Shown here piece after piece: positions 822-63,690 of a stretch of DNA of 64,000 nucleotides; positions within the stretch are counted from its first letter, which is position 1; the number at the start of each line of letters is the position of its first letter. Below the pieces are notes generated by a model, which did not search any database, was not told the origin of the DNA, and was given only the letters and a program-made list of their open reading frames with translations. The stretch lies in assembly GCA_964597545.1 (NCBI GenBank), contig CAZQXN010000004.1, positions 6,683 to 70,682 of the forward strand, written 5' to 3'. A program made the position numbers and the translations under genes. The stretch is from an uncultured Planctomycetia bacterium (GTDB lineage: Bacteria; Omnitrophota; Gorgyraeia; 1-14-0-20-64-10).

Positions 822-1738
822 GTGTTTTCCTGGATAAGACCACTCGGGTTATCGTTCAGGGGATTACCGGCAGGGCCGGTTCGTTCCACGCGACCCAGAT
901 GCTGGAGTATGGCACGCAGATTGTTGGGGGTGTTACCCCAGGGCGAGGCGGACAGCAGTGGGGGGAGCTTCCGATCTTTGATACCGTTGAGGAGGCGGTG
1001 GAAAAAACAGGCGCCACCGCCACCGCCATCTTTGTCCCTGCCCCACTGGGAGCCGATGCCATCTTAGAGGCCGTAGAGTCCAAGGTGAATCTGATTGTTG
1101 TCATCACTGAAGGTATCCCGGCACAAGAGATGCTTAAGGTCAAAGCGGTGCTTAAAAACAAAAGGGGTCAGACCCCCAAAGAGAAGGGGTCAGACCCTGT
1201 GATCATCGGTCCCAACGGCCCTGGGATCATTACCCCGGGCGAGGCTAAAATCGGCATCATGCCCGGCTACATCCACCGCCCAGGTTCCATCGGGGTGGTA
1301 TCTCGCTCCGGCACCTTAACCTATGAGGCAGTTTGGCAGTTGACCCAACTGGAGTTAGGACAATCCACCTGTATTGGCGTTGGTGGGGATACCCTCCCTG
1401 GAACCGGCTTTGTTGAGATTTTGGAATGTTTTGAGGCTGATCCTGCCACGCGCGCCATAGTTCTGATCGGTGAGATCGGAGGCTCTGCCGAAGAAGAGGC
1501 CGCTCGTTTCATCCGCGCCCGTGTTCATAAGCCGGTCGTTGCTTTTGTAGCCGGAGCTACCGCACCCGCGGAAAAGCGCATGGGTCATGCCGGCGCGGTG
1601 ATTGCCCAGGGGAAGGGGACCCATGCCTCCAAGATTGAGGCTCTAACTCAAGCCGGTGTCACCGTGGCCCAGAACCCTGCCCTCATTGGAAAGACCCTTG
1701 CCGAATGCCTTGCCGGACACAAGAAGCATGTAGGATGA
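818..1738 (+). CDS. sucD: Succinyl-CoA synthetase alpha subunit, with an unusual in-frame insert at about 1141-1200
   Basis: [45 protein letters not shown]...[41 protein letters not shown] is a canonical SucD. Translationally coupled to sucC. Confidence 0.9.
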
Positions 1739-5606: not shown

Positions 5607-7690
5607 CCTTGCGATCAATCCGACACTGGGCCCTCTTGTTCTTGGCAGTTGCCTCCTTTACCTGGCTGGCCCGGGCAGACACCGTGGAATTCACCATCTA
5701 CCACCCGGTCTCAACCGGTGCCGGAGGAACACACGCCGATGAACTGGCCATCGGATCTACCTACTCCAGCGAGACCCCCGGCGACGGCAGCTTAATCGTC
5801 GCCGACCGCTTAGGGATAGGGACCACCAGCCCCGCAGGCCCCCTCCATGTGGTAGGTGTGGACGACACAACCAGCTACGTCATCTTCAAGGAAGGGGCCA
5901 ACACCGCAGCTGCCGGCACCCCGGAGATCCGCGTAGGACTCGGCACCGACGACCCCCAAGAACAACTTCACTTAACCGGTAACCTCAGACTCCCCCCAAC
6001 CACCGTTGACTACGGCTACAAAGCTGGAGTCATCTATACCGACCCCGAAGGTTCCCTGAACCACTATATTCACGGTGATGGTGTTTCAGGAACCTTTATT
6101 GGAAGAGGAGCGGGCAATCTGGTGGTTGATTCCGCGATTGCCCGAAACGTTGGTATCGGCCGATCTGCCCTTTGTGATCCGGACTATACCGGATCAGACA
6201 ATACGGCTGTGGGGGGCAGCGCCTTAAGCTTCAATGAAGATGGGCAGTGGAATGTGGTTGTTGGAGATAGTGCGATGGCTTACAATCTTTCCGGGACTTC
6301 AAATACCGCTTTGGGCCTTTCTGCACTCAATAGCAACACAACCGGCAACTCCAACGTTGCTCTGGGATACAACGCTTTGGTTCAGAACACGACAGGGAGT
6401 TTTAACACTGCTGTTGGGGTGCGCACTTTAACTCAAAGTGCCGACGGCGAAAGGAATGTGGCCGTTGGAGCCAACGCCCTCAGGGACAATCAGGCTGTCG
6501 GCAGCAATGTGGCAGTCGGCGCTGGAGCGCTTGCATCAAATACTACCGGAGAGGGAAATGTTGCCGTAGGCATTGCCTGCCTCGGGCGAAATAGTACCGC
6601 AGATCACAATACGGGCATAGGTCGCTTTGCGCTGTGGGAAAACACCACAGGCTCAGAAAATTCGGTTTTGAGCGGATGGGAGGGTGGCAAAGACAACACA
6701 ACCGGAAGCAGTAACACCGGCGCAGGGTGTAGGGTTCTCTACAGGAATACAACAGCGAGCGACCAAGTTGCGCTGGGTGGGATGGCGCTTGGTAACAGTG
6801 CTCTTGGGGACGGCAGCGTTGGGATTGGCCAATCCGCACTTGCCGCAGATCAGGCAGGGCCCAACAACGTTGTCATTGGCTATGAGGCGGGAAAGTTAGC
6901 TTGCGGTGCCGGCTGCGTCTTTATCGGAAACTGGGTTGGTAGAAGCGAGATGGATAGCGAACAACTCCACATCGATAACTCCTCCACAGACACCCCCTTG
7001 ATCTGCGGTGAGTTCACCGATGGCAGCGAGCTCGTCACCGTAAACCACAACTTAGGTGTTGGCACCGCCACCTTTGGCACCGGTGCCGTTGGCGTGCTCG
7101 CCATCGCCAACGGCGCTATCCCCACCTCAAGCCCGGCCGACCAGATCCAGCTCTACGCTCAGGATGTGGATCAAGGAGGCGGCACCATGCGCTCAGAGCT
7201 TTATGTCCGGGACGAAGCCGGCAATCCGCCCACAAAGCTCTCGGATCCACCCCTGGTGGCAGCTCGCCTCACACCCGGGATCCCGGAGGATTGCAGCAAT
7301 GTGACTGCACTCTCCCCCCATAACTTCTCCCTGATCCCTGGGGGTCCCAGTGAACCGATGGCCTGGTCCTTCTACTCTGAACGTGGAGATACCGCCATCA
7401 ACGTAGACATGCTCAGAGTCGTCCGCTTGGTGGAGCAGATCTCTGGTGAGCACCTCGTCTACCTCAAAGATCTCAAAGCCGGTCAATATTTCCTGCAGCT
7501 GGCCGACATGAAAGAGCTTCCCAGCATAAAACAGTTGAGCGAGCAGGTCGCCACCGTCGGCGCTGAGCAGCGTGCTTTCGAACAGGAGTTGGCAGCGCAG
7601 GAGGAAGATCTGCGCCTCATCCAAGAAATGCTAACCGGGGACGGTCCATTTGGGGACACACCGTGGTCGGCCATTGCGAAAAGGCAGTAG
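5603..7690 (+). CDS. Secreted beta-helix repeat protein, paralog C
   Basis: - ATG overlaps the stop of paralog B (ATGA).
- Signal peptide, conserved N- and C-modules ([26 protein letters not shown]), divergent repeat core.
- 3' end overlaps the left inverted repeat of the RAYT cassette. Confidence 0.7.
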   Translation: MTLRSIRHWALLFLAVASFTWLARADTVEFTIYHPVSTGAGGTHADELAIGSTYSSETPGDGSLIVADRLGIGTTSPAGPLHVVGVDDTTSYVIFKEGANTAAAGTPEIRVGLGTDDPQEQLHLTGNLRLPPTTVDYGYKAGVIYTDPEGSLNHYIHGDGVSGTFIGRGAGNLVVDSAIARNVGIGRSALCDPDYTGSDNTAVGGSALSFNEDGQWNVVVGDSAMAYNLSGTSNTALGLSALNSNTTGNSNVALGYNALVQNTTGSFNTAVGVRTLTQSADGERNVAVGANALRDNQAVGSNVAVGAGALASNTTGEGNVAVGIACLGRNSTADHNTGIGRFALWENTTGSENSVLSGWEGGKDNTTGSSNTGAGCRVLYRNTTASDQVALGGMALGNSALGDGSVGIGQSALAADQAGPNNVVIGYEAGKLACGAGCVFIGNWVGRSEMDSEQLHIDNSSTDTPLICGEFTDGSELVTVNHNLGVGTATFGTGAVGVLAIANGAIPTSSPADQIQLYAQDVDQGGGTMRSELYVRDEAGNPPTKLSDPPLVAARLTPGIPEDCSNVTALSPHNFSLIPGGPSEPMAWSFYSERGDTAINVDMLRVVRLVEQISGEHLVYLKDLKAGQYFLQLADMKELPSIKQLSEQVATVGAEQRAFEQELAAQEEDLRLIQEMLTGDGPFGDTPWSAIAKRQ

Positions 7691-7742
7691 TTAATAGAGG
7701 GCGCGATAGAGAAGAAGCAAGTTTCCTATTTCTGACATAATA

Positions 7743-7772
7743 TTGATAATATGCAAAATCTTGTGGTATGCT
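7743..7772 (+). promoter_or_regulatory. Putative sigma70-type promoter for the RAYT gene (TTGATA - 18 nt - TATGCT, with TG upstream)
   Basis: TTGATA at 7743-7748 and TATGCT at 7767-7772 in an AT-rich gap upstream of the ATG at 7792. Shares an ATATGCAA motif with two other promoter-like sites. Confidence 0.35.
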
Positions 7773-7791
7773 GTCGATCGGGTAATAAAAC

Positions 7792-8388
7792 ATGCCACGA
7801 GTTGCAAGACAAGCCAGTGCGGCGGGATATTATCATGTTGTAGCCAGAGGGCATAACCGTCAGGCCATCTTCCGGGATTCCCAAGACTACCAACAATACC
7901 TCATCTATTTGTCACGTTTTAAAGAAGCGCCATCCTGTCGCTGTTACCATTTCTGCCTTATGCCGAATCATCTCCATTTGTTGCTTGGGATGGATTCTGT
8001 GCGTTCTCTCACTGGGATGATGCGACGAGTGCAGCAGGCATACCAGTTTCATTGGCGTCGTCGCTATGATCTCGTAGGCAATCTTTGGCAGGGAAGGTTT
8101 AAGAGTATTCCGGTTGATCAAGACGAGTACTTATTGGAGGCCAGTCGCTATATTGAACGGAATCCCGTCCGGGCGAAATTATGCGTTCTTCCTGAAGACT
8201 ATCCGTGGTCGAGCGCTCACCTTTACCTTAAGGAGCGAAGCAAAGGGTGCGGTTTGCTTGATTTGAGCCCGGCGTACTTGATGTTAGGTTCCAGCGAAGA
8301 GAAGAGACGGCAACGGTACCGGGAACACATAATGCAAGTACGGCCATATGACCAATTGGTTGACGCACAGATGGAGCGACTGATTTGA
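7792..8388 (+). CDS. REP-associated tyrosine transposase (RAYT), IS200/IS605 TnpA-like HUH Y1 transposase
   Basis: N-terminal YHVVARGHNRQAIF and HUH motif LMPNHLHLLL are typical of Tnp_REP / Y1 transposases. 198 aa. Confidence 0.8.
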   Translation: MPRVARQASAAGYYHVVARGHNRQAIFRDSQDYQQYLIYLSRFKEAPSCRCYHFCLMPNHLHLLLGMDSVRSLTGMMRRVQQAYQFHWRRRYDLVGNLWQGRFKSIPVDQDEYLLEASRYIERNPVRAKLCVLPEDYPWSSAHLYLKERSKGCGLLDLSPAYLMLGSSEEKRRQRYREHIMQVRPYDQLVDAQMERLI

Positions 8389-8450
8389 TGTGCAACGAGG
8401 ACACCTTCCCGGTCAAGGTGATGTAGGTGTGTCCCCAAATGGACCGTCCC

Positions 8451-9809
8451 CTATTGGGTTTGGCCGGTAAAGGTAAAGTCCTTCAACAGCACAGCCGGGG
8501 TGACCACCGAGGTAGCGCCTGAGATCGGATCGGCCACCAGACGAACCTCCTCGGAAAGGGCCTGGATTTTTGAGAAGGCCTGAAGAATCGACTGCGTAAA
8601 CCGTAAATTCTTCACAGCGCTCACCACCCTACCTCTCTCCACCAGAAAGGTTCCGTCTCGAGTCAACCCCGTCATCAAGGCCTGCTGTGTGTCGAGCAGC
8701 CCGTTGACGTAGTGGAAGCGAGTAATCCATAGCCCTCGATCCATACATTGAAGCATTTGGTGATGCGGTACCTTACCCGGGGCCACACAGAGATGGGCGG
8801 CCCCGGGCCCTTCGGCGGCTTCGTCAAAGGCAGGGGCATGCCCGGTGGAGTGGCGGTGGTACAGCTTGGCGTATTGGCTGTCAAAGACCACCCCGCGGGC
8901 CCGTCCCCCCTCAACCAGCGGTACGCGCCTCTTCGGGATCCCTTCAAAATCAAAGGGAGTTGCCAGCCCGCGGGTATCGGTACCGTCATCCCAGATCGAC
9001 AGCGTTGGATGCATGAGTTGCTCTCCCATGCGGCCTGCAAAACAGCTGGTTCGCTCATGCAGCTGTTTGGCCCCAAAGGCGATGGTGGAAAGCCACTCCA
9101 CCAATTCCGCCACCGCCTCGGGCTCAAGCAGGACATTGTACTTCCCCAACCGGATGGTTTTGGAGTTCCTGTTATGCCTGCAGTGGTCCAGGGCTTGCTG
9201 TAGAAGGGACTGTGGGTTGAGGGTCTTGGGGTCGCGAACAGCCCCTGCTGCAAAGCCAGAAGCCTTGCCTTGGGTGGGAATCAATCTTAAGCCCGTGGTT
9301 GAGAAGGGCTGATACTGCGCAAGCCCCCCAGAGCCTACCACGCAGAACTCCTCCTCTCCTGTTGCAAAGGAGCCGGCCAAGTCCATTCCAGCGCGGTGGG
9401 TTTGTTGGGAGAGCTCTCGGATCATTCGGATGTTCTTGGTCAGGTTCTGGCGGTGATCCACTGGGAAGTGCGTCTTGATGGGGGCGGGTTTTTCGCGGGG
9501 TGGATGCGCGCTGAAGGCCGGTGCAGTCTGCTTGCTGGGGAGCCGTGCAATTTGAAGCGCAGAGGCAATCGCGCAAGTGAGTGCACGGTCGCTCAGTGAA
9601 GATGTGGTGGCAACCCCGGCGCGCCCCTCTGCCGCTACCTTGACCCAGACGGTGACATCCTCCTCATGGAAATTTTGATGAATGGCACCCCCGGCAAAGC
9701 GCAGGGTAGTCTTGGCGCCCCGCTGTACGGTTAAAAGGGTCTCATCGGCCGGTGATCTCTTTGCCGCCTCCTTAAGTACAGTCACCATGCGGGATTTACC
9801 CAGGAGCAT
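8451..9809 (-). CDS. pmbA: TldE/PmbA-family metalloprotease-associated protein
   Basis: 452-aa protein with TldD/PmbA-family layout. Start overlaps the stop of the tldD-like gene upstream on the minus strand. Confidence 0.75.
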   Translation of the reverse strand: MLLGKSRMVTVLKEAAKRSPADETLLTVQRGAKTTLRFAGGAIHQNFHEEDVTVWVKVAAEGRAGVATTSSLSDRALTCAIASALQIARLPSKQTAPAFSAHPPREKPAPIKTHFPVDHRQNLTKNIRMIRELSQQTHRAGMDLAGSFATGEEEFCVVGSGGLAQYQPFSTTGLRLIPTQGKASGFAAGAVRDPKTLNPQSLLQQALDHCRHNRNSKTIRLGKYNVLLEPEAVAELVEWLSTIAFGAKQLHERTSCFAGRMGEQLMHPTLSIWDDGTDTRGLATPFDFEGIPKRRVPLVEGGRARGVVFDSQYAKLYHRHSTGHAPAFDEAAEGPGAAHLCVAPGKVPHHQMLQCMDRGLWITRFHYVNGLLDTQQALMTGLTRDGTFLVERGRVVSAVKNLRFTQSILQAFSKIQALSEEVRLVADPISGATSVVTPAVLLKDFTFTGQTQ

Positions 9810-20723: not shown

Positions 20724-22827
20724 AGGTCTTTTTGTTACCGGTACCGGAACAGAGGTAGGAAAAACCGTTGTAACGGCGGCCCTGGCCCATGCCTTCCTTA
20801 GACAGGGAGTGAATGTTGGGGTTGTCAAGCCTATAGCGACCGGCTGCCAGCGGCGCGGCGGCAAACTTATCTCATCGGATGCCGAGAAGCTTCTCCGGGC
20901 AAGCGGCGCTGGGGACCCCACGGAATGGGTCTGTCCCTATCGCTTCAGGCCTCCGGTTGCTCCTTCAGTTGCGGCAGGCAAACAGGGCATCTCCTTCTCT
21001 CGAATCGATCAGGCCATGGAGCGCTTGAGCAGCCGCCATGATCTTCTTTTGGTTGAGGGGATCGGCGGGCTTCTGGTGCCCCTGGATGCCCGCCGCACCG
21101 TTGTGGATCTGGCAGCGCACCTGAAGCTTCCCCTGCTTGTGGTGGCCCATGCGGGGCTAGGGACCCTGAATCATACCCTCCTTACCCTTGAGGCGGCTCG
21201 ATCCAGGAACCTTGAAGTAGCTGGCATTGTCTTGAATCAGCGCAGTCCCACTCCCTCTCTGGCAGAGCAGACCAATCCAGCGGTATTGCGCAAATTGGGT
21301 CAGGTGCCGGTTCTAGGGGTAATCCCTCACCTGAGATTCCCCTCCCCAGAGCAGGTAGCCGGCTACCTTAAGGCCAAAAAGATCTTTCAGAAAATCGGTA
21401 CCAGGTACCAAACCCAAACCCCTTGTACAAAAGGGTCAGACCCTTTCGTACAGCGCCTACGGAGCGGTCACGTACGAAAAGTTCAGACCCTGAGCCATCG
21501 GTACCTGGTACCAAAGGCCGTACCAAAGGCTCAAGCGAAGCGTTTGATCCAGAGCGACCGCAAGCGGCTGTGGCACCCCTTTACCCAGATGCAGGATTGG
21601 GAAAAGGAGGAGTCGCTGATCATCCGCTCTGCCCGCGGGGTGTGGCTTACCGACATCCACGGCCGTCGCTATCTCGATGGTGTCTCCTCCCTCTGGGTCA
21701 ATCTCCACGGCCACCGCCATCCGGCCCTGGACCAGGCCTTAAAACAGCAGGTTGATCGAGTGGCCCACTCCACCCTTTTGGGGGCAGCCAACATTCCCTC
21801 CATCGAGCTGGCAGAGGAGATCTTGCGGGTGGCCCCCAAGAATCTCACACGCGTTTTCTACTCCGACAGCGGCTCTACTGCTGTTGAAATTGCACTCAAG
21901 ATGGCTTTTCAGTACTGGCAGCAAAACGGCCGCCCGCGCCGCCGTCGCTTTGTCCACTTTGTCGATGCCTACCATGGGGATACGGTGGGCTCTGTCTCGG
22001 TCGGCGGGATCGACCTGTTTCATCAGGTGTACAAGCCCCTGCTCTTTAAGGGGTTCAAGGTTCCCTTGAACAAGATTAAGCCCTTTGAGGAGACCCTGCG
22101 CAAGCACCACCCCGAGATTGCCGGTGTCGTGGTAGAGCCCTTGGTGCAAGGGGCGGCTGGGATGGCGACCCAACCCAAAGGGTGGCTCAAGCAGGTAGAA
22201 AGGCTCTGCCGCCGCTACGGACTGCTGCTGATTGCTGATGAGGTGGCAGTAGGTTTCGGGAGAACCGGCACGATGTTTGCCTGCGAGCAGGAGAAGGTGC
22301 GTCCAGATCTGCTCTGTTTGGCCAAGGGGTTAAGCGGCGGCTACCTTCCTCTGGCGGCGACCCTGGCCTCTGAGCGAATTTACAAAGGGTTTTTGGGCTC
22401 CTATGCCTCCAAGCGGACCTTTTTTCATGGGCACAGCTACACCGGAAATCCCTTGGCCTGCGCGGTTGCTTTAGAGAGCCTGCGTCTTTTCCGCCGCGAG
22501 AAGGTGCTGCAGAGACTTAAGCCTAAAATCCGGCTCTTTACACAGGAGCTCAAACGCTTCTGGGAACTTCCCCATGTAGGAGATGTGCGCCAGCAGGGGC
22601 TGATGGCTGGCATCGAGCTAACCCAAGATAAAGCAAAAGGCACCCCTTATCCCTGGGAAACCAAGATGGGGATTCAAGTCTGCAGTGCGCTCAGAGCCGA
22701 GGGCATTCTCTTGAGACCCCTGGGCAACGTGGTGGTGCTCATGCCCCCTCTGGTCATCTCCCGAGAGGAGCTTAACTTTCTTTGCCGCAAGACCTATACT
22801 GCTGTGGATCGAGTGACTGGCATTTGA
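20716..22827 (+). CDS. bioDA: Dethiobiotin synthetase fused in-frame to adenosylmethionine-8-amino-7-oxononanoate aminotransferase (BioD-BioA), linker encoded by a MITE-like repeat
   Basis: - N-terminal GTGTEVGKTVVTAAL P-loop (BioD).
- C-terminal WHPFTQMQ...YSDSGSTAVEIALKMA class-III aminotransferase (BioA).
- Single ORF with no stop between them.
- A possible internal TTG at 21544 could also start bioA independently. Confidence 0.8.
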   Translation: MTRGLFVTGTGTEVGKTVVTAALAHAFLRQGVNVGVVKPIATGCQRRGGKLISSDAEKLLRASGAGDPTEWVCPYRFRPPVAPSVAAGKQGISFSRIDQAMERLSSRHDLLLVEGIGGLLVPLDARRTVVDLAAHLKLPLLVVAHAGLGTLNHTLLTLEAARSRNLEVAGIVLNQRSPTPSLAEQTNPAVLRKLGQVPVLGVIPHLRFPSPEQVAGYLKAKKIFQKIGTRYQTQTPCTKGSDPFVQRLRSGHVRKVQTLSHRYLVPKAVPKAQAKRLIQSDRKRLWHPFTQMQDWEKEESLIIRSARGVWLTDIHGRRYLDGVSSLWVNLHGHRHPALDQALKQQVDRVAHSTLLGAANIPSIELAEEILRVAPKNLTRVFYSDSGSTAVEIALKMAFQYWQQNGRPRRRRFVHFVDAYHGDTVGSVSVGGIDLFHQVYKPLLFKGFKVPLNKIKPFEETLRKHHPEIAGVVVEPLVQGAAGMATQPKGWLKQVERLCRRYGLLLIADEVAVGFGRTGTMFACEQEKVRPDLLCLAKGLSGGYLPLAATLASERIYKGFLGSYASKRTFFHGHSYTGNPLACAVALESLRLFRREKVLQRLKPKIRLFTQELKRFWELPHVGDVRQQGLMAGIELTQDKAKGTPYPWETKMGIQVCSALRAEGILLRPLGNVVVLMPPLVISREELNFLCRKTYTAVDRVTGI
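21393..21517. mobile_element. MITE/REP-like hairpin element with terminal inverted repeats AATCGGTACCAGGTACCAAACCC / CCTTTGGTACCAGGTACCGATG, inserted in-frame in the bioD-bioA linker
   Basis: - Terminal GGTACCnGGTACC units are in inverted orientation.
- Internal GGGTCAGACCCTTTCGTAC / GTACGAAAAGTTCAGACCC inverted pair.
- The same 19-mer recurs at 57034-57052. Confidence 0.6.
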
Positions 22828-37607: not shown

Positions 37608-37655
37608 CCGGTACCGGGTACAATGTACCCGGTACAATGTACCCGGTACATTTTT
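37608..37655. repeat. GGTACC-family hairpin repeat (two CCGGGTACAaTGTACCCGG copies plus T-run), probable bidirectional terminator between dcd and gpmA
   Basis: ggtaccgggtacaatgtacccggtacaatgtacccggtacattttt. Confidence 0.55.
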
Positions 37656-37659
37656 GGGT

Positions 37660-38274
37660 TTATTGGAGGATGGTTTTGGAGGCGACCTTACCCTCAGGGG
37701 TAAAGTCGTAGCGGATTGGCACCCCGGTCGGAATCTCCAGGGCCACCACCTCTTCGGGGCTTAAGTGGTCTAACTCCATGACGATCGAGCGCAGCGAATT
37801 GCCGTGCGCTGAGACCAAAACATTCTTGCCGGCCGTAAGCTCAGGCAGGATCTTCGACTGAAAGTAGGGCAGGGTGCGTGCTGCGGTGTCTTTAAGGGCC
37901 TCGCCGCCCGGCGGAGCGACGTCATAGCTGCGCCGCCAGAGCTTTACCTGCTCTGCGCCGAACTTCTTGCGCATCTCATCCTTGTTGAGCCCCTGGAGAT
38001 TTCCATAATGCCGCTCATTCAGTGCTTGGTCTTTGAGGGTGGCGAGGTCCTGCTGGCCCAGGATCTTTAAAATGATCTCCAGCGTCTCAATGGCGCGGAT
38101 TAAGACCGAGGTGAAGGCCACATCAAAGACAAGACTCTCCCCTCGGATCGCTTCACCCCCCTGCTTGGCCTCTGCGCGGCCTGCCTCGGTCAAGGGGATG
38201 TCGATCCAACCGGTGAACTTATTCTCCAGGTTCCACTGGGACTGTCCGTGACGGACCAATACGAGGGTTGCCAT
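37660..38274 (-). CDS. gpmA: 2,3-bisphosphoglycerate-dependent phosphoglycerate mutase
   Basis: MATLVLVRHGQSQWNLENKFTGW has the RHG catalytic motif. Start set at this Met (CAT at 38272-38274). The ORF-track extension to 38595 is a run-on through the divergent promoter region. Confidence 0.85.
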   Translation of the reverse strand: MATLVLVRHGQSQWNLENKFTGWIDIPLTEAGRAEAKQGGEAIRGESLVFDVAFTSVLIRAIETLEIILKILGQQDLATLKDQALNERHYGNLQGLNKDEMRKKFGAEQVKLWRRSYDVAPPGGEALKDTAARTLPYFQSKILPELTAGKNVLVSAHGNSLRSIVMELDHLSPEEVVALEIPTGVPIRYDFTPEGKVASKTILQ

Positions 38275-39138: not shown

Positions 39139-39176
39139 TCGACTCCAACCATTGAACGTTGAACTGAACAACAAAA

Positions 39177-39213
39177 AGGGGTTCCTCTAGCCGGAGGGAC
39201 CCCTTTTTTTCTT
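39177..39213 (+). terminator. Rho-independent terminator
   Basis: AGGGGTTCCTCtagccgGAGGGACCCCT followed by T9. Confidence 0.7.
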
Positions 39214-41586: not shown

Positions 41587-42841
41587 CACTCGTCGCATCC
41601 CCCTCTGGAAGCATGTGCGCCCAGAGGATTGGGAAGACTGGCATTGGCAGTTGCGAAACCGCATCACCACGGTGGATCAATTACGCCGGATTGTCTCATT
41701 GACCCCCGAGGAAGAGTATGCGTGTGCCCAGCGAGAGGGCCGACTCGTCATGGCCATCCCCCCTTACTGGGCCTCTCTCATGGATCCGAAGGATCCCAAC
41801 TGTCCCGTCCGTTTGCAGACAGTACCCCTGGATCAGGAGTTTAATATTCGAGCGCACGACATGGAAGATCCCTGCGGTGAAGACGCCGACATGCCGGTGC
41901 CGGGGCTGGTGCATCGCTATCCCGACCGAGTGCTTTTCTTGGTTACCGAGCAGTGTGCGATGTACTGCCGCCACTGTACCCGCAGGCGTTTGGTGGGGGT
42001 GAATCACGGCCTGGCTTCCAGTCATGAGCGGGTCTACCAGTATCTTAAGGCGCACCCAGAGGTCCGGGATGTGCTGATCTCCGGCGGGGATCCCCTCATG
42101 ATGACCGATACCCGCCTCCATCAGATCTTGGGCCGGCTTCGGGAGATTCCCCACCTGGAGTTCATCCGAATTGGCTCTCGAACGCCGGTGACCATGCCGC
42201 AGCGCGTTACCCCGGAACTGTGTGAGATGCTTAAAGCGCATAAGCCGATCTGGATGAGCCTGCATTTCTGTCACCCCAAGGAGATTACACCGCGCGTCCA
42301 ACAGGCCTTGGAGATGCTGGCCGACAGCGGTGTCCCCTTAGGTTCGCAGACGGTGCTCTTAAAGGGGATCAACACGGATCCGGCGGTGATGAAGAAGCTG
42401 ATGCATGAGCTGCTCAAGGCGAGGGTCAAACCCTACTACATCTATCAGTGCGATATGGCGCAGGGGATCAGCCACTTTCGCACCAAGGTGGAGACAGGGG
42501 TTCGGATCATCGAGGCTCTGCGGGGACACACCTCAGGTTATGCCGTTCCGACCTTTGTGATTGACGGCCCCGGCGGAGAAGGAAAGGTTCCGATCCATCC
42601 CGACACCGTCATCTCCTATAAACGGGGGGTGATCAAGCTGCGCAATTATGCCGGCAAGCTCCTCACCTACCATGAGCCGGATGAGGTTGAGGAGGAAGAG
42701 GAGCTTTTGGTGCCGGTTCCGGTTCGATCCAACGGCAACGGCCACAGAAACGGCAACGGCCACAAGAATGGCAACGGCCACAAGAATGGCAACGGCTCTA
42801 AGGGGCGCGCAGCGGTTAAGGCCCGCACCAACGGCAACTAA
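41576..42841 (+). CDS. Lysine-2,3-aminomutase-like (KamA family) radical SAM enzyme, with a C-terminal NGNGH(K/R) repeat tail
   Basis: CAMYCRHCTRR radical-SAM motif, WQLRNRITT KamA N-motif. Start proposed at the TTG at 41576, 5 nt after AAGGAGGG. ORF opens at 41507. Confidence 0.7.
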   Translation: MDDSTRRIPLWKHVRPEDWEDWHWQLRNRITTVDQLRRIVSLTPEEEYACAQREGRLVMAIPPYWASLMDPKDPNCPVRLQTVPLDQEFNIRAHDMEDPCGEDADMPVPGLVHRYPDRVLFLVTEQCAMYCRHCTRRRLVGVNHGLASSHERVYQYLKAHPEVRDVLISGGDPLMMTDTRLHQILGRLREIPHLEFIRIGSRTPVTMPQRVTPELCEMLKAHKPIWMSLHFCHPKEITPRVQQALEMLADSGVPLGSQTVLLKGINTDPAVMKKLMHELLKARVKPYYIYQCDMAQGISHFRTKVETGVRIIEALRGHTSGYAVPTFVIDGPGGEGKVPIHPDTVISYKRGVIKLRNYAGKLLTYHEPDEVEEEEELLVPVPVRSNGNGHRNGNGHKNGNGHKNGNGSKGRAAVKARTNGN

Positions 42842-42868
42842 GATCTAAAATCTGGTACCGTAAAATCT

Positions 42869-42916
42869 GGTACCGGGTACACTTTTCAACAGTGTACCCG
42901 GTACCTTTGTTTTGTT
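42869..42916 (+). terminator. 15-bp perfect hairpin of the GGTACC repeat family followed by a T-rich run
   Basis: GGTACCGGGTACACTtttcaacAGTGTACCCGGTACC then TTTGTTTTGTT. Confidence 0.5.
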
Positions 42917-42954
42917 GACGGATCCCTTCCGTACCTGGTACCGTCTTTGTTGTC

Positions 42955-46397: not shown

Positions 46398-48001
46398 AGA
46401 AAACATCTCATATCCTCAGGGTCAAGCGGGCACTGGTTTCGGTTTCTGACAAGAGGGATTTGATTCCCTTCGTGGCGGAGCTCAAAAAACTCAAGGTGGA
46501 GGTGATCTCCACTGGAGGCACGGCAAAGCTCTTGAGGCAGGAAGGGATTGCGGTTCGTGAGATTTCAAAGGTGACCGGTTTTCCGGAGATCCTGGGGGGT
46601 CGGGTCAAGACCCTGCACCCCAAGGTCCAGGGCGGGATCCTGGCTGACCGCCGATCCGCCAAGCAGATGAGCCAAGCGCGCAAACTCAAACTGCCGCTCA
46701 TCGATCTGGTGGTGGTGAATCTCTACCCCTTCGAAGCGGCCGAGGCCAAGGAAGCGGCCCTCTCCAAGCTGATTGAGGAGATTGATATCGGAGGCGTTAC
46801 CTTGCTGCGGGCCGCAGCCAAGAACTTTCACTCCGTAGCCGTGGTGTCTCGGCCCGAGCAGTACCCTGAGGTGTTAAGCGAGCTGATCCGATCTGGGGCA
46901 AGGCTTTCTGAGGCGACCCGAAAGCGACTCGCTGTGGCTGCCTTTTCTCAGACCGCCTACTACGACACCCTCATTCACCAGACCCTTGCGCATCGGGGAA
47001 TCGGCCGCAAGCGGTCCTTGTCTGAGGCTTCGGCCCTGTGGCCTGATCACCTGGTCTTGGGATTGACCCGGCGGCAGATCTTACGCTATGGCGAGAACCC
47101 GCACCAGGCAGCGGCTTGGTACCAATGGCCGGCGCTGTGCGGTGGAGTAGGTGCGGGCCTGGCCGGAGGCCGCCAACTGCACGGCAAAGAGCTCTCCTTT
47201 AACAATCTTCTGGATTTGGAAGCAGCCATGCAGGTGACAACATATTTTCGTTCGCCCACCGCAGTTGTGATCAAACACAACAATCCTTGCGGGGTTGCTT
47301 CTTCCGGGTGCCTTCGCTCTGCTTTTGAACAGGCCTTTGCTTGTGATCCGGTCTCTGCCTTTGGCGGGATTGTGGGGCTTAACCGCAAGGTGGATGTAAG
47401 CACCGCTCGAGCCATTGCAGCCAGCGGGTTCCTGGAATGCTTGGTGGCGCCGGGCTACCAGGCAGCGGCCCTGAAGCTTCTTCAGAAGAAGAAAAACCTT
47501 CGCATCCTGGAAGTTCCCAGCATGAGCCAGGGCAAACTCTTTCGATGCCTGGATCTTAAACAGGCAGCCGGAGGCTTGTTGGTGCAGAGTCCGGATACGG
47601 CAGAAAAATCCCCCTCTCGTTGGCGACGGACAACCTCCCTTAAGCCCACCGCCGCACAGATGATCGACCTTGCGTTTGCCTGGAGGCTCACCCGTTTTGT
47701 CCGCTCAAACGCGATTGTGATTGTTAAAGGAGAAAGGACCGTTGGCATTGGTATGGGCCAGCCCAGCCGCGTTGACTCAGTGCGTCTGGCCCTTCGCCAG
47801 GCCGGTCCCAAGGCCAAAGGTGCGATCTTGGCCAGCGATGGTTTCTTCCCCAAGCCGGATGGACCCCGGATGGCCATCCGCGCCGGCATTCGGGCCATCG
47901 TCCAACCGGGCGGATCGGTTCGGGATGCGGAAGTCATCCGGGCAGCACAACAAGGAAGGATCCCCATGCTCCTCACCGGAGAGCGCCACTTCACCCATTA
48001 A
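46394..48001 (+). CDS. purH: Bifunctional AICAR transformylase / IMP cyclohydrolase
   Basis: - KRALVSVSDKRDLIPFVAELKKLKVEVISTGGTAKLL is the MGS-like domain.
- The AICARFT domain follows.
- GTG start at 46394 overlaps the pabC stop (GTGA).
- The ORF-track N-terminal extension from 46139 is non-homologous. Confidence 0.85.
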   Translation: MKKTSHILRVKRALVSVSDKRDLIPFVAELKKLKVEVISTGGTAKLLRQEGIAVREISKVTGFPEILGGRVKTLHPKVQGGILADRRSAKQMSQARKLKLPLIDLVVVNLYPFEAAEAKEAALSKLIEEIDIGGVTLLRAAAKNFHSVAVVSRPEQYPEVLSELIRSGARLSEATRKRLAVAAFSQTAYYDTLIHQTLAHRGIGRKRSLSEASALWPDHLVLGLTRRQILRYGENPHQAAAWYQWPALCGGVGAGLAGGRQLHGKELSFNNLLDLEAAMQVTTYFRSPTAVVIKHNNPCGVASSGCLRSAFEQAFACDPVSAFGGIVGLNRKVDVSTARAIAASGFLECLVAPGYQAAALKLLQKKKNLRILEVPSMSQGKLFRCLDLKQAAGGLLVQSPDTAEKSPSRWRRTTSLKPTAAQMIDLAFAWRLTRFVRSNAIVIVKGERTVGIGMGQPSRVDSVRLALRQAGPKAKGAILASDGFFPKPDGPRMAIRAGIRAIVQPGGSVRDAEVIRAAQQGRIPMLLTGERHFTH

Positions 48002-48032
48002 ATCGGTACCTAAATCGGTACCAGGTACCGAT
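48002..48032. repeat. GGTACC-family palindromic repeat (AATCGGTACCaGGTACCGATT)
   Basis: Perfect 10-bp-arm palindrome directly after the purH stop. Confidence 0.5.
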
Positions 48033-48097
48033 TGTTGTTGCAACTGCATGGCACTAGGGCGGTTGCAAGCTACCTGGCACCGATAGGTTTTCATGAG

Positions 48098-54300: not shown

Positions 54301-57001
54301 GGAAGCAATTGCCCGGATCATCCCTGATGCTCCGAGTCTTTCCGGTGTGGCAGAGGGTGTTGTGAGCGGTTTTATAGAGCGGGAGCTTCCCCTTTGGAAA
54401 CTTTCCGGGGTCCTCCTTCGCCGAGGCAGGTATGGTGAGGGTCACGGTGTTCTGCTGATTGGAGACGCCCGGCATGCTACAGTGAAAGCGCCCCAGACCA
54501 TTCAAATCAACCGAGGTTTAACCGGCCTCGCTCTTTTCCTTGTGGGAGATCCGAATATGAGCTGGGTTAAGCCACCACCCAAAGCTCCGGATTGGCGGTT
54601 CCTTGCTCAAAACAATCTTGTTGGCTTCGTAAGCGATGGCCAGCTCATTGTTGGCTCCAATCCCACGACAGAGAACCCCTCTGGACTGCGCGCCAAGATA
54701 GGTTGGCGGGATGACGACGTACCCTTTGGGTCAACAAGAATCCAATCCAGAGGAGAGTTTATTCCTGTTGAGCGCATCATCAAACTGGAAATGAAGGATA
54801 CCAAACCCTCAAAGATTGAGGCGGTTTGGGTCGGCTCTTCGCACGTAGCAATTCCGGAAGCGTTGGTACAGATCCTTGAGAGAATCGACGCCATTCATTT
54901 GGAGATCCAAGAGGGGGATCGTTTGGGGCAGTACCGGGAGTATGCTGGGCGCCTGCATCGAGAGTATTTTGCCGGCCTGGAAGAGGTTCAAGACGAGGTG
55001 GTGCGGCAGGCATGGGACGAATTGCGTCGGATTGTTACCCTAGAAGAATTTCAGGTTGACGATGAGGAGGCTCTTGTTCGGTTTGGGAAATCCACAGGGG
55101 CTAAAGTGGTTAAGAAAACAATTACAGGACGCCCCATCGTTACTATTGGACCGGAAATGTTCCGGAAATTGACCGCTTTTCGCCAGACAGGCCAACTTCC
55201 GCCTGGTACCCCCGCCAAGCATTATGAAGAACTACGAAACAATGATGAAGTGAATGAACCTGGCGTTTATGTGAGTCCTACCGGACTGAAAATGGCGCAT
55301 CAGGAGTTGGCTGCCGCAGGCATTGATTTTCGTTATACGAAAGGAATCTTCTTTCATGAGGCGCTGGAGGAAGGGTTTGATGGTTCCGGAATCACTGACC
55401 CCATCTTGGCTCTATGTGAACAGCATACGGACCCAAGGGTGATCGAAGAGGAGCTTCTGGTCAATGCGTTAATCGGGGAAGAAAGCGTAGAGGCCTCACG
55501 GGCAGGTTATCAATTCGCCAAACAGAGAGTTGATCAAAACCTCAGCAATAGCCAGCGCTTCTTCGCGTTTGTTAAAGACCGTTACGAGAGCGGAGGCCGT
55601 TCTACCACATTTGATGAGATTGAAGCCTCGCTTGGCCCAACAAGCCGGTATTATCGAACACTCCAATGGGTTGTTGATACCCCGTACGACCAACTCCTCG
55701 CATTGGCCCAAAGACGCTGGGAAGGATCCGATTACTCCTCTGCCGTTCCTCTCGCAGCCGGCCTGGAGGAGGAGACAACCAGAGTCCTGGCTCCTACGCT
55801 GGAAGTTCCAATTGCTGCCCTGGAAGAGGGTAATCTAGAGCAAGCACTGCAAGGATCTGCCTATCTCCTGGAGCCTAAGCCGACAACAGATCAACTCGAA
55901 ACATCTTTTGTGCAATTCCCCGGTGAACTCTGGGCTGTTGGATTCAGGGATCGAGACAATATTCCGCATCTCGCTGTTGGAGCAGGAAACAGGGATCACG
56001 CTATTGGCATAACTGATTTCTTAACCAAGGCATACAGCGCGGCGCCCGTCAGCGTTGACGTCGTTCACAAGCATCCGGAGCCCCCCTTTCCTTCGAAGGG
56101 AGATTTTGATCTATTGAGAACCTGGAAGCTACGCCAGGGAGGGCGCGTAGGCCGACAGCGCAATTGGGTTGAGATTCGCCGAGATGGAGTGTGGCGACTC
56201 CTTGGGTACGGGAGAGATTATAAAGAGACGGCAGATTTCCAAAGAGAGATTCAGGTTCAGATTTGGAAAAGAGGCGAGAGGGCGCAGAACGAGTTCTATC
56301 TTCCAGGTACTGGAGGTTTACGCGTTGCGCTTGTCGCGGACCAAGAGGTTTTTGGCATCCCGGGCCTTGATTATTTCTATCAGTTGATCGACCAGCCTGA
56401 GACAACAGGGGTCAGGTTCGAAGATGCCGTTGGCCACTGGGTTCTCTGGAGGGCAGACAACACCTGGGAATCTATCTTCGAATCACAAGGCTATACTCGT
56501 TCTGCCACTAGCTTTTCGACAGCGAGCAGGGCAGGGCCGGTGGAAGCGGCAGGCGCGCTGCTTACGCGGTTGGCCCAAGCCGCAGAAGGCCAACCCGGCG
56601 TTTTGGTGCTCACCCCTGAGGCCATCCAGGATCCAGCCGGCCTAGAGGAGCTTATCAAGCGCCTCCCCCCAGAGCTCTTACGACGGACCATCTGGTTCAA
56701 CACAGGAGTTGCCCTGGCCGAATACCTGCACTCCCTTGAACCCACCCTCCAGATCATAAAGGACTACAACACCCAAGCCCTGGTCCTAAAACTCCTCAGC
56801 AGGGAAGAGGCAGAGAAGATCACCACCACCTCTAAAGATCTTGCCCTCTACCTCCAAGAAGTCCTCCCCATGACCGTCACCTACCTTAAGGTCCTCACCG
56901 TCAAGCTGATCCTGGCGGCCCTAGGGGTTCCCATCGAACAGCTCAACCAGATCGACCCCACCAAGCTCGAAGCCCTCTTCGCACCGCTGGTAGCCGCCTA
57001 A
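51347..57001 (+). CDS. Giant secreted protein (1884 aa), unknown function, with four W[VI]PGFIP-type internal repeats and recurrent A-x-G-(L/Q)-E-E motifs
   Basis: - Signal peptide MQTQKLAYQLTALILSAALTLPPSAYA.
- Repeats (GEAWVPGFIPTRF..., GGWISGFIPPSRI..., TSWVPGFIPASLF..., GTWIPGFIHKSYI...), each followed by a basic segment and L..A.FS..L.
- C-terminal 135-aa module is duplicated at 63200-63624. Confidence 0.7.
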   Translation: MQTQKLAYQLTALILSAALTLPPSAYALRPQEKQEASGLEELTKALRLGNPDAALDTLVQSVAERLTLPVPATGQEEGPADRIRTLLERSPNTETIFHIIGRDLLSTYPDLRGFHDLHSSFAVEGISNSSSDLIRRHAGPGHLEVWYHYPQKAVWISWEEMQYSATNSRRGFQRKVYLSTPARERLGVEGFLRHLLGPGQLNVPSELWDGDEAMFQVLEDLATLSSAGQEEAEQIHQFPKDVISEEELHLLPAQIFLWGMFRFNQVVEDRFVVRLKNRRNKIEIIPGDPEDLPEDAAMMRLEVQAQDTVTVTVEGAASPEIREMAADIVSDWLSKVFQVNQELKAKQAEHEGSFKDKANAIKRRAWDEFSESLTPLKAALSAGQEEAALDEIEAAIETKRSLDFTPTTILKHGDVLGRFHGARGASADVYVEADHVLGKVLNSPFFLRMVLAQHLGKTIAGATPLSVDRHRPPPDNVRFALNLPYRDYLEAMEPSLEMLERLIDDPGEMVEVVVVEPAPHSGGAWVIYKGGPGEAWVPGFIPTRFVFAKSVPHSAAPGRWWLHSKIGQTIRVRPDSVNRRGHFPQAVFAADQSFNAVRREIRLAERELQQRDKEHIPVRVILVHEALQGVEVMYRSQNGGWISGFIPPSRISFHSKGRPVGRLPHLLDRLGWFLSRVGQDIPADLIAIDSSRGLPRATFSVRLSLEEVLQEMQPALERLGQAAANPNDRVDVELALLGSREDANSMRYSHWNQTSWVPGFIPASLFLDDPHQKVHTSIIRAWLWRHRHEKIPVAVKDVTHNRHLPRAAFSLGLTIDQLKAEIEPAAEQLEGLGPGELQVPCEVIPATVEAGAEVLYRGPRGTWIPGFIHKSYIRFLDRTVAPHALWSQWLKRQVGRKINVTFNHIKRNDPIPSALFSLTLPEDVRPSFRPGKTASAGQEEWSADVWNRLHAVGLHGTTGPLLKEIIQYYSRQGADADFEGVREKWEAIARIIPDAPSLSGVAEGVVSGFIERELPLWKLSGVLLRRGRYGEGHGVLLIGDARHATVKAPQTIQINRGLTGLALFLVGDPNMSWVKPPPKAPDWRFLAQNNLVGFVSDGQLIVGSNPTTENPSGLRAKIGWRDDDVPFGSTRIQSRGEFIPVERIIKLEMKDTKPSKIEAVWVGSSHVAIPEALVQILERIDAIHLEIQEGDRLGQYREYAGRLHREYFAGLEEVQDEVVRQAWDELRRIVTLEEFQVDDEEALVRFGKSTGAKVVKKTITGRPIVTIGPEMFRKLTAFRQTGQLPPGTPAKHYEELRNNDEVNEPGVYVSPTGLKMAHQELAAAGIDFRYTKGIFFHEALEEGFDGSGITDPILALCEQHTDPRVIEEELLVNALIGEESVEASRAGYQFAKQRVDQNLSNSQRFFAFVKDRYESGGRSTTFDEIEASLGPTSRYYRTLQWVVDTPYDQLLALAQRRWEGSDYSSAVPLAAGLEEETTRVLAPTLEVPIAALEEGNLEQALQGSAYLLEPKPTTDQLETSFVQFPGELWAVGFRDRDNIPHLAVGAGNRDHAIGITDFLTKAYSAAPVSVDVVHKHPEPPFPSKGDFDLLRTWKLRQGGRVGRQRNWVEIRRDGVWRLLGYGRDYKETADFQREIQVQIWKRGERAQNEFYLPGTGGLRVALVADQEVFGIPGLDYFYQLIDQPETTGVRFEDAVGHWVLWRADNTWESIFESQGYTRSATSFSTASRAGPVEAAGALLTRLAQAAEGQPGVLVLTPEAIQDPAGLEELIKRLPPELLRRTIWFNTGVALAEYLHSLEPTLQIIKDYNTQALVLKLLSREEAEKITTTSKDLALYLQEVLPMTVTYLKVLTVKLILAALGVPIEQLNQIDPTKLEALFAPLVAA

Positions 57002-57024
57002 ACCCAAACCTAAAACCTGTACCC

Positions 57025-57053
57025 GGTACCAAGGGGTCAGACCCTTTCGTACC
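57025..57053. repeat. GGTACC / GGGTCAGACCC-family hairpin after the giant gene (contains the 19-mer GGGTCAGACCCTTTCGTAC also found at 21434)
   Basis: GGTACCAAGGGGTCaGACCCTTTCGTACC is an imperfect hairpin. Confidence 0.5.
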
Positions 57054-57081
57054 AGTATTTGATAAATATGCAACATATTTG

Positions 57082-60049: not shown

Positions 60050-60385
60050 CCCACTGCAGCTCAATACGCAGGCGGCAGTCACTCGCACAACTCGCACTCG
60101 TGGGACGCTCACCAGGAGCGGCGGAATCGGGGCGGATTTGACGTAACTATTGATCAGGTATTAGGTTAACGAGATTTGTGCTTGCGGGCCCGGAACGCTG
60201 GGGGGCCGAAAAATTTGATGAAATTACCCCCTTGCAGCTTAGGAGATAGTGTATACTTTCTTACTGTAAGGAACAATATAGGTCTGAAAAAGGCAAACTA
60301 TCCGAAAGGGTAGGGCGTAACGCCATAGAGCCGTCAGGGTTATGTAATGTAACCCCCGGCAGTCGGTTGCCAGATCAAACGGTAA

Positions 60386-60424
60386 AAGCCCTAAGCTTTT
60401 GGATAAGTTTGGGGCTTTTTTTAT
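60386..60424 (+). terminator. Imperfect hairpin followed by T7 (intrinsic terminator)
   Basis: AAGCCCTAAGCTTttggatAAGTTTGGGGCTTTTTTT. Confidence 0.5.
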
Positions 60425-60502
60425 TTGTACACTAGCTTGATTCTTGGCGGAAGAAGATATGGTGGAATCTCAAAGGGATTGAAGGAAAAGGGGGTTGCGG
60501 GA

Positions 60503-62973: not shown

Positions 62974-63624
62974 GTGGCCGCTATCGAGATTGCGGTGGCC
63001 GGCTGCCACAACCTCCTCTTGATTGGCCCGCCCGGTGCCGGCAAGACCATGTTGGCTGAGCGGATTCCAACAATCCTGCCAGAGATCTCAGCACCCGAGG
63101 CATTGGACACCACCTTGATCTACAGCGTGACTGGGCATCTTCAGCTGAGTCGACTCCTGTTGAATAGACGGCCCTTTCGCTTCCCGCACCACCTTGCTCA
63201 AGAGGCAAAGGGCCGCTCCGGCATGCTGGTACTAACCCCGAAAGCCATCCAGGACCCAGCCGGCCTGGAGGAACTCGTTAAGCGCCTGCCTCCAGAGCTC
63301 TTGCAGCGGATCATCTGGTTCAACACAGGTGTTGCCCTGGCCAAACGCCTGCATGCCCTGGAACCCACCCTCCAGATCATAGAGGACTACAACACCCAAG
63401 CCCTGGTCCTAAAACTCCTAAGCCAGGAAGCAGCAGAAAAGATCTCCACCACCTCTGAATCCCTCACCCTCTACCTCCAAGAAGTCCTCCCCATGACCGT
63501 CACCTATCTGAAAGCCCTCACCGTCAAGCTGATCCTTGTCGCCTTAGGGGTCCCCATGGAGCAGCTCAACCAGATCGATCCCACCCAGCTAGAAACCCTC
63601 TTCGCACCGATTACCGCTGCTTAA
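62974..63624 (+). pseudogene. Chimeric duplicated fragment: internal comM segment (Walker A region) fused in-frame to a copy of the giant protein C-terminal module
   Basis: - Residues [42 protein letters not shown]...RPFRFPHH are about 85% identical to comM residues about 205-290.
- The following residues, ...[26 protein letters not shown]...LFAPITAA, are about 80% identical to giant-protein residues about 1750-1884.
- The fragment is followed by the same GGTACC repeat. Confidence 0.55.
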
Positions 63625-63690
63625 CCCTAAAATCGGTACCAGGTACCAAACCCACAAATCGGTACCTGGTACCAAGAGCTGGTACCAAAA
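63625..63690. repeat. GGTACC-family repeat (AATCGGTACCAGGTACCAAACCCAC ... AATCGGTACCTGGTACCAAG ... GGTACC)
   Basis: The same terminal unit as the bioD-bioA element; arms in opposite a/t-centre orientation. Confidence 0.55.

Follow-up and report, generated by a model that had tools for sequence, protein, structure and literature searches.

The window analysed here is a stretch of 64 kb of DNA (56.7% G+C) from an uncultured bacterium of the phylum Omnitrophota, deposited as Planctomycetia (assembly GCA_964597545.1, contig CAZQXN010000004.1, positions 6,683 to 70,682 of the forward strand). Scattered through it are short palindromic repeats made of GGTACC units, which form a family new for the phylum Omnitrophota and similar to the repetitive extragenic palindromic (REP) sequences and bacterial interspersed mosaic elements (BIMEs) of other bacteria. 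Genes were identified via Pfam, and coding and non-coding DNA were separated with a simple map of non-overlapping open reading frames (ORFs), in which 4.2 kb (6.6%) is non-coding. Shuffles that preserve dinucleotide composition were the baseline for enrichment.

Copies of the repeat in the window

The 113-nt spacer between a kamA-like gene and ychF is repeat almost throughout. Two tandem 15-nt units, TAAAATCTGGTACCG, begin 5 nt past the kamA-like stop codon (42839-42841) and occupy 42846..42875 of the + strand (Tandem Repeats Finder: period 15, 2.0 copies, 100% match). A hairpin, GGTACCGGGTACACT / AGTGTACCCGGTACC, lies at 42869..42915 on the same strand; it was flagged by the terminator scan and folds at -30 kcal/mol (z -5.6). 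Its perfect 15-bp stem and 7-nt loop (42869-42905) are followed by TTTGTTTTGT, which makes it the best terminator-like copy of all. The spacer also contains a degenerate core, CGTACCTGGTACC, at 42930..42942 (no strand assigned), which was read from the sequence and by mismatch search and ends 12 nt ahead of the ychF ATG (42955). The hairpin of this core alone is not significant (z +0.3).

The 60 nt that separate the convergent genes dcd and gpm-like, the latter encoding a histidine phosphatase, are taken up by a second hairpin. It consists of six 7-nt units of the CCGGTAC type (37608..37655, no strand assigned), with a folding energy of -32 kcal/mol on either strand (z -4.4 and -4.0), and ATTTTTGGGTTTATT comes after the 37611-37649 hairpin on the + (dcd) strand. 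An earlier reading of the window from its letters and ORFs, here called the sequence-only reading, had described this site as two copies of CCGGGTACAaTGTACCCGG. A repeat is there, but the doubling is only approximate, the second copy being CCCGGTACAATGTACCCGG; the site really holds about 2.9 copies of a 14-nt unit, GTACCCGGTACAAT.

After purH, two TAAATCGGTACC units and the palindrome AATCGGTACCaGGTACCGATT (48013-48033) make up a cluster at 47999..48034 of the + strand (-16.5 kcal/mol, z -4.1). The purH stop codon, TAA, is the opening three bases of the TAAATCGGTACC unit, and the cluster abuts the start region of a Mur-ligase gene.

The clusters at 57005..57055 and 63625..63690, both on the + strand, are paralogues that stem from a segmental duplication (56573-57001 and 63196-63624). 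The duplication is 84% identical over the 300 nt compared, spans the stop codon and extends into the repeat. The first cluster is a mosaic of TAAAACCTGTACCCGGTACC and AAGGGGTCAGACCCTTTCGTACC lying 3' of the stop codon of a gene of 1884 amino acids, and its hairpin is weak (z -2.1). The second contains two 26-nt units (AAATCGGTACCAGGTACCAAACCCAC / AAATCGGTACCTGGTACCAAGAGCT) and an extra GGTACC. Its two cores pair as a 13-bp stem (-30.7 kcal/mol, z -4.7), and it exceeds its paralogue by exactly one 20-nt unit, ATCGGTACCAGGTACCAAAC. The ORF ahead of it (62974-63624) is chimeric, with an N-terminal Mg-chelatase/AAA piece (62980-63192, 83% identical to 58304-58516) and ~430 nt copied from the 3' end of the 1884-residue gene; the stop codon and the repeat were copied along at its 3' end.

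The two remaining sites are within genes. A 150-nt composite at 21386..21535 (+) is made of AAAATCGGTACCAGGTACCAAACCCA, AAAAGGGTCAGACCCTTTCGTAC, CATCGGTACCTGGTACC and (GTACCAAAGGCC)x2; its cores pair as a 13-bp stem around 90 nt (-57 kcal/mol, z -6.4). A surface loop of sucD has two in-frame copies of AAGGGGTCAGACCC, a companion module of the family, at 1162..1197 (+), with exact GGGTCAGACCC at 1165 and 1187. When the sequence was read again, all five sites listed by the sequence-only reading were present as described, including the perfect stem and T-run at 42869. Its list had missed the 21386-21535 cluster and the sucD pair, and two of its entries, 57005 and 63625, are not independent. The tally for the window is six clusters, of which five are independent.

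Enrichment and modules

GGTACC occurs 34 times in the window against 7.8 +/- 2.9 in the shuffles, and 15 of the 34 occurrences fall within the non-coding fraction. The density of GTAC is 7.1 per kb in intergenic DNA versus 1.6 in coding DNA. At one mismatch or fewer AAATCGGTACC is found 7 times (0.5 expected), and at two or fewer GGTACCNGGTACC is found 20 times (1.3 expected). There are four exact copies of GGGTCAGACCC, the 26-mer AAAATCGGTACCAGGTACCAAACCCA is shared identically by 21391 and 63629, and the most repeated 12-mers of the window include GGTACC-type ones. With this enrichment and the strong folding of the clusters, the dispersed family of palindromic hairpin repeats proposed by the sequence-only reading is upheld. 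Several coding GGTACC (3184, 3199 and 5100) are explained by internal 51-nt (17-aa) repeats in three tandem paralogues of ~650-695 residues at 1705-7690; a close relative (L147) has two such genes.

Three modules recur in the copies. The first, seen at 21392, 48000/48012 and 63630/63656, is a 13-nt palindrome with flanks, (A)AATC-GGTACC-W-GGTACC, often as two inverted cores 5-90 nt apart; the doubled TAAAATCTGGTACCG at 42846 is a variant of it. The second is the stem CCGGTACCGGGTAC(A), with copies at 37608 and 42867 and half of one at 57016. The third, AAGGGGTCAGACCC(TTTCGTAC), includes GGGTCAGACCC and is found at 1162, 1184, 21428 and 57030. Perfect cores number five in the 64 kb (~0.08 per kb), and the units carry almost no stop codons. 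Rfam covariance models at the gathering threshold gave no match at any repeat site, their sole match in the window being a c-di-GMP-I riboswitch at 60282-60374. Two candidate boxes were rejected: the cyanobacterial LexA box (RGTACNNNDGTWCB), as the GTAC starts are 7 nt apart here and not 8, and a CopY box (TACAnnTGTA) at 37620, where the actual sequence is TACAATGTAC.

The clusters occupy 5 of the 29 intergenic regions of the window, one convergent and four co-directional, and none of the four divergent ones. Five of the six start within ~0-10 nt of a preceding stop codon.

Hairpin formation

As RNA, five of the six clusters fold at -16 to -57 kcal/mol with z-scores of -4.1 to -6.4, 57005 being the weak one, and the z-scores of hairpins in relatives are similarly strong. 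Thirteen pairs of neighbouring cores, taken from the window and from the loci of the genome scan described below without regard to their centre bases, were compared; in 12 of them one centre base is the complement of the other (A...T or T...A). This marks the two cores as inverted copies pairing with one another, and not merely two self-palindromes. Among 122 non-redundant hairpins from the metagenome matches listed, the four outer bases are complementary in 257 of 488 cells, compared with 162 +/- 11 after shuffling. These outer flanks vary by lineage yet still pair, as AATC/GATT, AAAC/GTTT or AAAA/TTTT.

Occurrence in relatives and turnover

Confinement to the window had been named by the sequence-only reading as grounds against a family; copies were found in a close relative with a 92%-identical SucD and in a distant syntenic lineage. 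The contigs of the close relative (Ga0118719_1003152 and Ga0117905_1008980, 58% G+C) were retrieved through SucD and not through the motif. At this locus (L146), CCGGTACCGGGTAC-(loop)-GTACCCGGTACCG stands between the stop codon of gltA (citrate synthase) and the Shine-Dalgarno sequence of mdh (z -4.5), a place that maps upstream of the left edge of the window. This amounts to one cluster in 13 kb of unselected DNA.

By YchF, the relatives beyond the source organism are ~72% identical or lower, and those with names are Candidatus Omnitrophica. In loci L086 and L089 the genes dcd, gpm, two paralogues, kamA and ychF follow one another as in the window, with amino-acid identities of 65-81%. Both loci have GGTACCAGGTACC-12 nt-GGTACCTGGTACC immediately past the gpm stop codon, which is the same place as in the window with another version of the hairpin. 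The distant lineage and its kin account for at least 10 loci from metagenome Ga0080064 and at least 8 from Ga0209726, and exact 19-mers are spread over 5 contigs of one metagenome-assembled genome (MAG) labelled Planctomycetia. Beyond the hairpins by which the loci were found, 8 more perfect-core clusters were counted in 256 kb (~0.3 per 10 kb), and the window is comparable with 3-4 in 64 kb.

Three other Omnitrophota relatives fetched via YchF (67-72% identity, 39 kb in total) contain no core and have GGTACC at background. The spacer between kamA and ychF measures 113 nt in the window, 2 nt in L086 and 9 nt in L141, a locus with a 72% identical YchF. In L141 neither this spacer nor the one between purH and mur (26 nt) has a significant hairpin, which argues against a conserved structural requirement at the two junctions. 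The distribution of the family is thus patchy, and junctions filled by repeats in the window are short and free of repeats in relatives. The kamA-like radical-SAM gene itself ends in an 18-nt tandem repeat (42731-42796) encoding a C-terminal tail of NGNGH(R/K) units, which is of other length in L089 and L141 and deleted in L086.

No target-site duplication or conserved insertion target was detected in 276 flanks, and nothing is conserved past position -5. A parent autonomous element whose ends match the inverted 13-nt cores, which bound 5-90 nt of sequence, was seen neither in the window nor beside copies at the loci examined.

In-frame copies in coding regions

The 21386-21535 element is stop-free and in frame within ORF 20686-22827, which encodes BioD (residues 13-217) and BioA (residues 306-701). 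BioD-BioA fusions of 640-700 residues are common among the nearest representatives. Their linker is variable in the alignment, and that of the window protein is the longest by roughly 25-45 residues. To judge from the reading frame, the 150-nt element is carried inside a natural BioD-BioA linker, and terminator action there would therefore truncate bioA expression.

Compared with the 92%-identical orthologue, the window sucD has near-identical flanks, and ~45 nt of loop are swapped for the two AAGGGGTCAGACCC copies. The SucD loop of the window is 10 residues longer than that of E. coli, and long loops are frequent in Omnitrophota SucD. Because several of these proteins already have long loops, the event is read as a replacement of loop sequence, and a fresh insertion was rejected.

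In the distant syntenic lineage, in-frame hairpins inside gatA and gatB lengthen the proteins by 9 residues (TVPGTGTVPGT-type) when solved structures are taken as the reference. One more copy was recognized by eye within an Era-like GTPase of the same lineage. Its copies with a 5-nt spacer (18 nt from core to core, frame kept) have an open frame across them and mostly encode VPGT...VPGT, whereas copies with a 12-nt spacer mostly lack a long open frame across. Such a contrast is the expected outcome of selective filtering of random insertions. A stop-free frame test of coding location, of low power at such G+C, gave 77% for cores versus 94% for random positions.

Origin and likely function of the family

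With somewhat more confidence than doubt, the sites are taken to be a lineage-specific family of short interspersed palindromic repeats arranged in REP/BIME-like mosaics. The sequence-only reading had called them similar to REPs or to miniature inverted-repeat transposable elements (MITEs). The resemblance to REP/BIME mosaic hairpins stands. However, the copies have no cognate REP-associated tyrosine transposase (RAYT), no GT[AG]G, the conserved tetranucleotide that REPs carry at the 5' end of the palindrome, and no target duplication of the MITE type, and they are therefore neither REPs nor MITEs proper. In a literature search the exact 13- and 15-mers were not found, nor was a palindromic repeat family described for Omnitrophota. 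Publications that join 'Omnitrophota' and 'palindromic repeat' deal with other topics, as far as their titles and abstracts tell.

The copies are assembled from a few modules, namely flanked core units, the stem and the companion module. They are gained, lost and remodelled at the DNA level, as shown by the one-unit difference between the paralogues, the loop replacement in sucD and the varying spacer lengths. Under this reading, copies would last where they do little harm: past stop codons, in short intercistronic spacers and in tolerant linkers or loops. Each transcribed copy would form a very stable stem-loop. Where a U-tract is present (37608 for dcd and 42869 for the kamA-like gene), this would most likely serve as a factor-independent terminator. 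Elsewhere, by analogy with E. coli REPs, it may be a 3' or intercistronic hairpin that stabilizes mRNA or decouples neighbouring cistrons. Because the sequence of the core, and not pairing alone, is strictly conserved, sequence-specific recognition by a trans-acting protein encoded elsewhere is suggested, rather than, on present evidence, by the adjacent RAYT-like gene.

Several points weigh against this explanation. The analysis revealed neither a transposase nor a target-site duplication or conserved insertion target, so that mobility is deduced only from presence or absence and from differences in unit number. The copy number per genome is an extrapolation. The perfection of the core at orthologous loci is biased, because these loci were retrieved by exact match to the core. 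A function at the RNA level is predicted, and a U-tract accompanies only two of the six clusters. In addition, a lineage-specific selfish repeat does not predict the same core in unrelated phyla.

The same core in other phyla

A genome scan for AAATCGGTACCNGGTACCAA returned 14 loci, where about 4 would be expected by chance on the authors' own estimate. Four of them are single sites (three with G at the centre), and the other ten have a second core within ~40 nt. The paired cores belong to two 'Planctomycetia' MAGs, a Clostridiales MAG (2 contigs), an Anaerolineaceae MAG and a Herbinix MAG, the last three of 37-40% G+C. A metagenome scan for the two-core hairpin gave at least 120 loci of several sequence classes. 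Those listed comprise AATC-flanked (61-67% G+C), GAAAC-flanked (68-72%), CA/TG-flanked (70-74%) and low-GC AAAA-flanked hairpins, and heptamer arrays of the form (GGTACCA)n(GGTACCT)n at 42-53% G+C. In L075, L112, L035 and L037 (42-53% G+C) the arrays are long, with up to 32 GGTACC in 4 kb, and show the hexamer in another, array-like form. Contig L113 (1355 nt, 69% G+C) has three 137-nt tandem repeats, each with CAGGTACCAGGTACCTG-N-CAGGTACCTGGTACCTG.

In low-GC genomes the element resembles a classical bidirectional terminator, and no common neighbour gene was found beside the copies there (PrmA, NlpA, DUF3810, a sigma factor and an ABC transporter). Viral contigs gave zero matches for the hairpin pattern and likewise zero for two control palindromes, and hence offer no control of specificity.

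The 13-nt core, even in its AAATC-flanked form of 18-19 nt, thus occurs as inverted pairs in Omnitrophota (57-64% G+C), in Clostridia and Anaerolineae MAGs (37-40%) and in soil contigs (70-74%). A recurring core with lineage-specific complementary stem extensions and in-frame invasion of genes would suggest a mobile hairpin element that crosses phyla. In that case a widespread trans-acting system, for example a transposase or nuclease specific for hairpins or a factor acting at RNA 3' ends, would have the GGTACC-W-GGTACC hairpin as its cognate site. This is regarded as a doubtful proposal.

Alternative explanations

Another view is that a dimeric protein, for instance a nucleoid-associated protein or global regulator, binds the AATC/GATT-flanked 13-bp palindrome as double-stranded DNA, or that the palindrome is an uptake-like signal, and that the hairpin is a by-product. 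It would account for the retention of the core sequence itself: orthologous loci of ~79-86% nucleotide identity share an identical core, whereas the 12 nt separating their cores are scrambled. Several phyla share the core with differing flanks, and some copies lie near gene starts and ribosome-binding sites. Against these stand the covariation of the centre base in 12 of 13 pairs and that of the flanks across lineages, which point to core-core pairing and not to independent sites. Moreover, the flanking genes share no function, the conservation of the core is open to ascertainment bias, and the density of cores (~0.08 per kb) is well under the ~1 per kb established for known uptake sequences. 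A protein-binding site is therefore considered unlikely as the primary role.

The copies might also be primarily intrinsic Rho-independent terminators, with their similarity reflecting a preferred stem sequence and not the spread of an element; the sequence-only reading had called them hairpin terminators. The location just past stop codons and the absence from divergent spacers suit this idea, as do the two clusters with a stem and a U-tract on the + strand, 42869-42915 and 37608-37665. In low-GC genomes, too, the core occurs in shapes of A-tract, stem and U-tract, for example after an nlpA-like gene in L006. However, 21386, 48002, 57005 and 63625 have no U-tract and none of the four was flagged by the terminator scan, and one of them is in frame within bioD-bioA. 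Copies in relatives are found in gatA and gatB, directly ahead of a Shine-Dalgarno sequence inside an apparent gltA-mdh-sucCD operon of the tricarboxylic acid cycle, and in a divergent 5' region (L087/L103). Because of these placements and the missing U-tracts, the family as a whole is not a terminator class. Identical 26-mers at distant sites and common accessory modules would not be expected under convergence, and L141 lacks a significant hairpin at the same junctions. Hence it is rather unlikely that termination explains the family, although individual copies, to go by stem and U-tract, may well terminate transcription.

The window also has canonical terminators without GGTACC, at 39173-39208 and 60384-60419. 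The latter has the c-di-GMP-I riboswitch (Rfam RF01051, 51 bits) ahead of it and, a short way downstream, ORF 60425-61645; a 15/30-nt tandem repeat (61178-61597) makes up the 3' half of this ORF.

A further possibility is that the copies are true REPs moved by a RAYT, either the Y1 transposase of the window or another one in the genome. The RAYT-like gene, which is not a member of the family, lies at 7792-8388 on the + strand (Pfam PF01797, Y1_Tnp), and the best NCBIfam match of its protein is REP_Tyr_transpos, at 73 bits under a cut-off of 80. Its presence fits the REP-like anatomy of short, clustered, mosaic hairpins 3' of genes, and recognition of a single-stranded hairpin would account for the strict conservation of the core. 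Yet the gene is flanked by perfect 26-nt inverted repeats of its own, GGGGACGGTCCATTTGGGGACACACC, at 7637-7662 and 8426-8451 (element 7637..8451, +). This repeat contains no GGTACC, has no other copy in the window and does not fold alone (z -0.95). Three Omnitrophota orthologues (61-65% identity) are flanked by a like inverted repeat, GGGGACGCTCCATTGGGGGACAC and variants, and their contigs have no GGTACC cores. The GGGGACGGTCCATTTGGGGACACACC-type repeat is absent from 134 other loci, nearly all of which bear GGTACC, and is missing from every GGTACC-bearing locus. The cognate repeats of the Y1 transposase are therefore of a different sequence, and the link that the sequence-only reading drew between this gene and the repeats falls away.

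No Y1 gene stands beside GGTACC elements at loci whose neighbours were examined, and the consensus flank next to the core is (A)AATC, with no GTAG or GTGG signature. Mobilization by a RAYT thus appears quite improbable; a different mobilizing enzyme elsewhere in the genome is possible. As for the Y1 element, terminal inverted repeats are atypical for the IS200/RAYT class. The left 26-nt repeat sits within the 3' end of the preceding gene, the stretch upstream of the Y1 gene is strongly AT-rich, and the Logan assembly of the same organism (L140) ends 34 nt upstream of the Y1 gene.

Finally, GGTACC is a common cloning site and the data are entirely metagenome assemblies, but an artificial origin of the repeats in assembly or library preparation, for example from KpnI-site sequence of adapters or linkers, can practically be dismissed, since the copies are interior to contigs, in frame in conserved genes and at orthologous positions across independent assemblies, studies and samples, with lineage-specific flanks and diverged spacers.

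Significance and comparison with known systems

The Omnitrophota are uncultured, and their gene-expression signals and genome dynamics are almost unstudied. A defined repeat family provides a marker for operon and 3'-end structure in this phylum and a handle for strain typing. The repeats are also a likely source of assembly breaks and of annotation errors, such as read-through ORFs and insertions in housekeeping enzymes. If the core found across phyla does reflect a shared recognition system, it would point to new machinery for mobilization or RNA processing, which could be found by co-occurrence. If not, the GGTACC family is one more REP/BIME-like family, useful but ordinary.

Among known repeats, Correia elements have 26-nt terminal inverted repeats and TA duplications, neither of which is seen for the GGTACC family, and the lack of a target-site duplication in the flanks also sets it apart from MITEs. 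The HIP1 and short tandemly repeated repetitive (STRR) sequences of cyanobacteria are similar in that a palindrome resembling a restriction site is over-represented and a 7-nt periodicity exists, as in the 37608 units and the metagenomic GGTACCN arrays. However, HIP1 is dense and even through coding DNA, whereas GGTACC is concentrated in few hairpin clusters. The DNA uptake sequences of Neisseria likewise are a conserved short word that forms inverted-pair hairpins right after genes and is tolerated in coding DNA. In contrast, the GGTACC core is about ten times sparser and self-palindromic, and no link to competence is known.

Rickettsia palindromic elements (RPEs) offer a parallel for the in-frame copies, since they too are found in housekeeping genes and encode short peptides in tolerant loops, as the copies do in bioD-bioA and in gatA and gatB of relatives. 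The RPEs are 100-150 nt long and mostly coding, whereas GGTACC copies are mostly 30-60 nt and intergenic, and there is no sequence similarity between the two.

The REPs and BIMEs of Enterobacteria and Pseudomonas are compared last. The GGTACC family differs from them in lacking a RAYT flanked by its repeats and the 5' GT[AG]G. Its core is a perfect 13-nt palindrome of two KpnI-type hexamers, it has in-frame genic copies as well, and its core is met again in other phyla, while any given REP belongs to one species or genus. In both, short imperfect palindromes (20-40 nt) fold into stable stem-loops and combine with accessory motifs into mosaics. Both are situated past stop codons and between cistrons, with a U-tract after some copies only, and the roles to be expected are the same, namely stabilization of mRNA 3' ends and termination.

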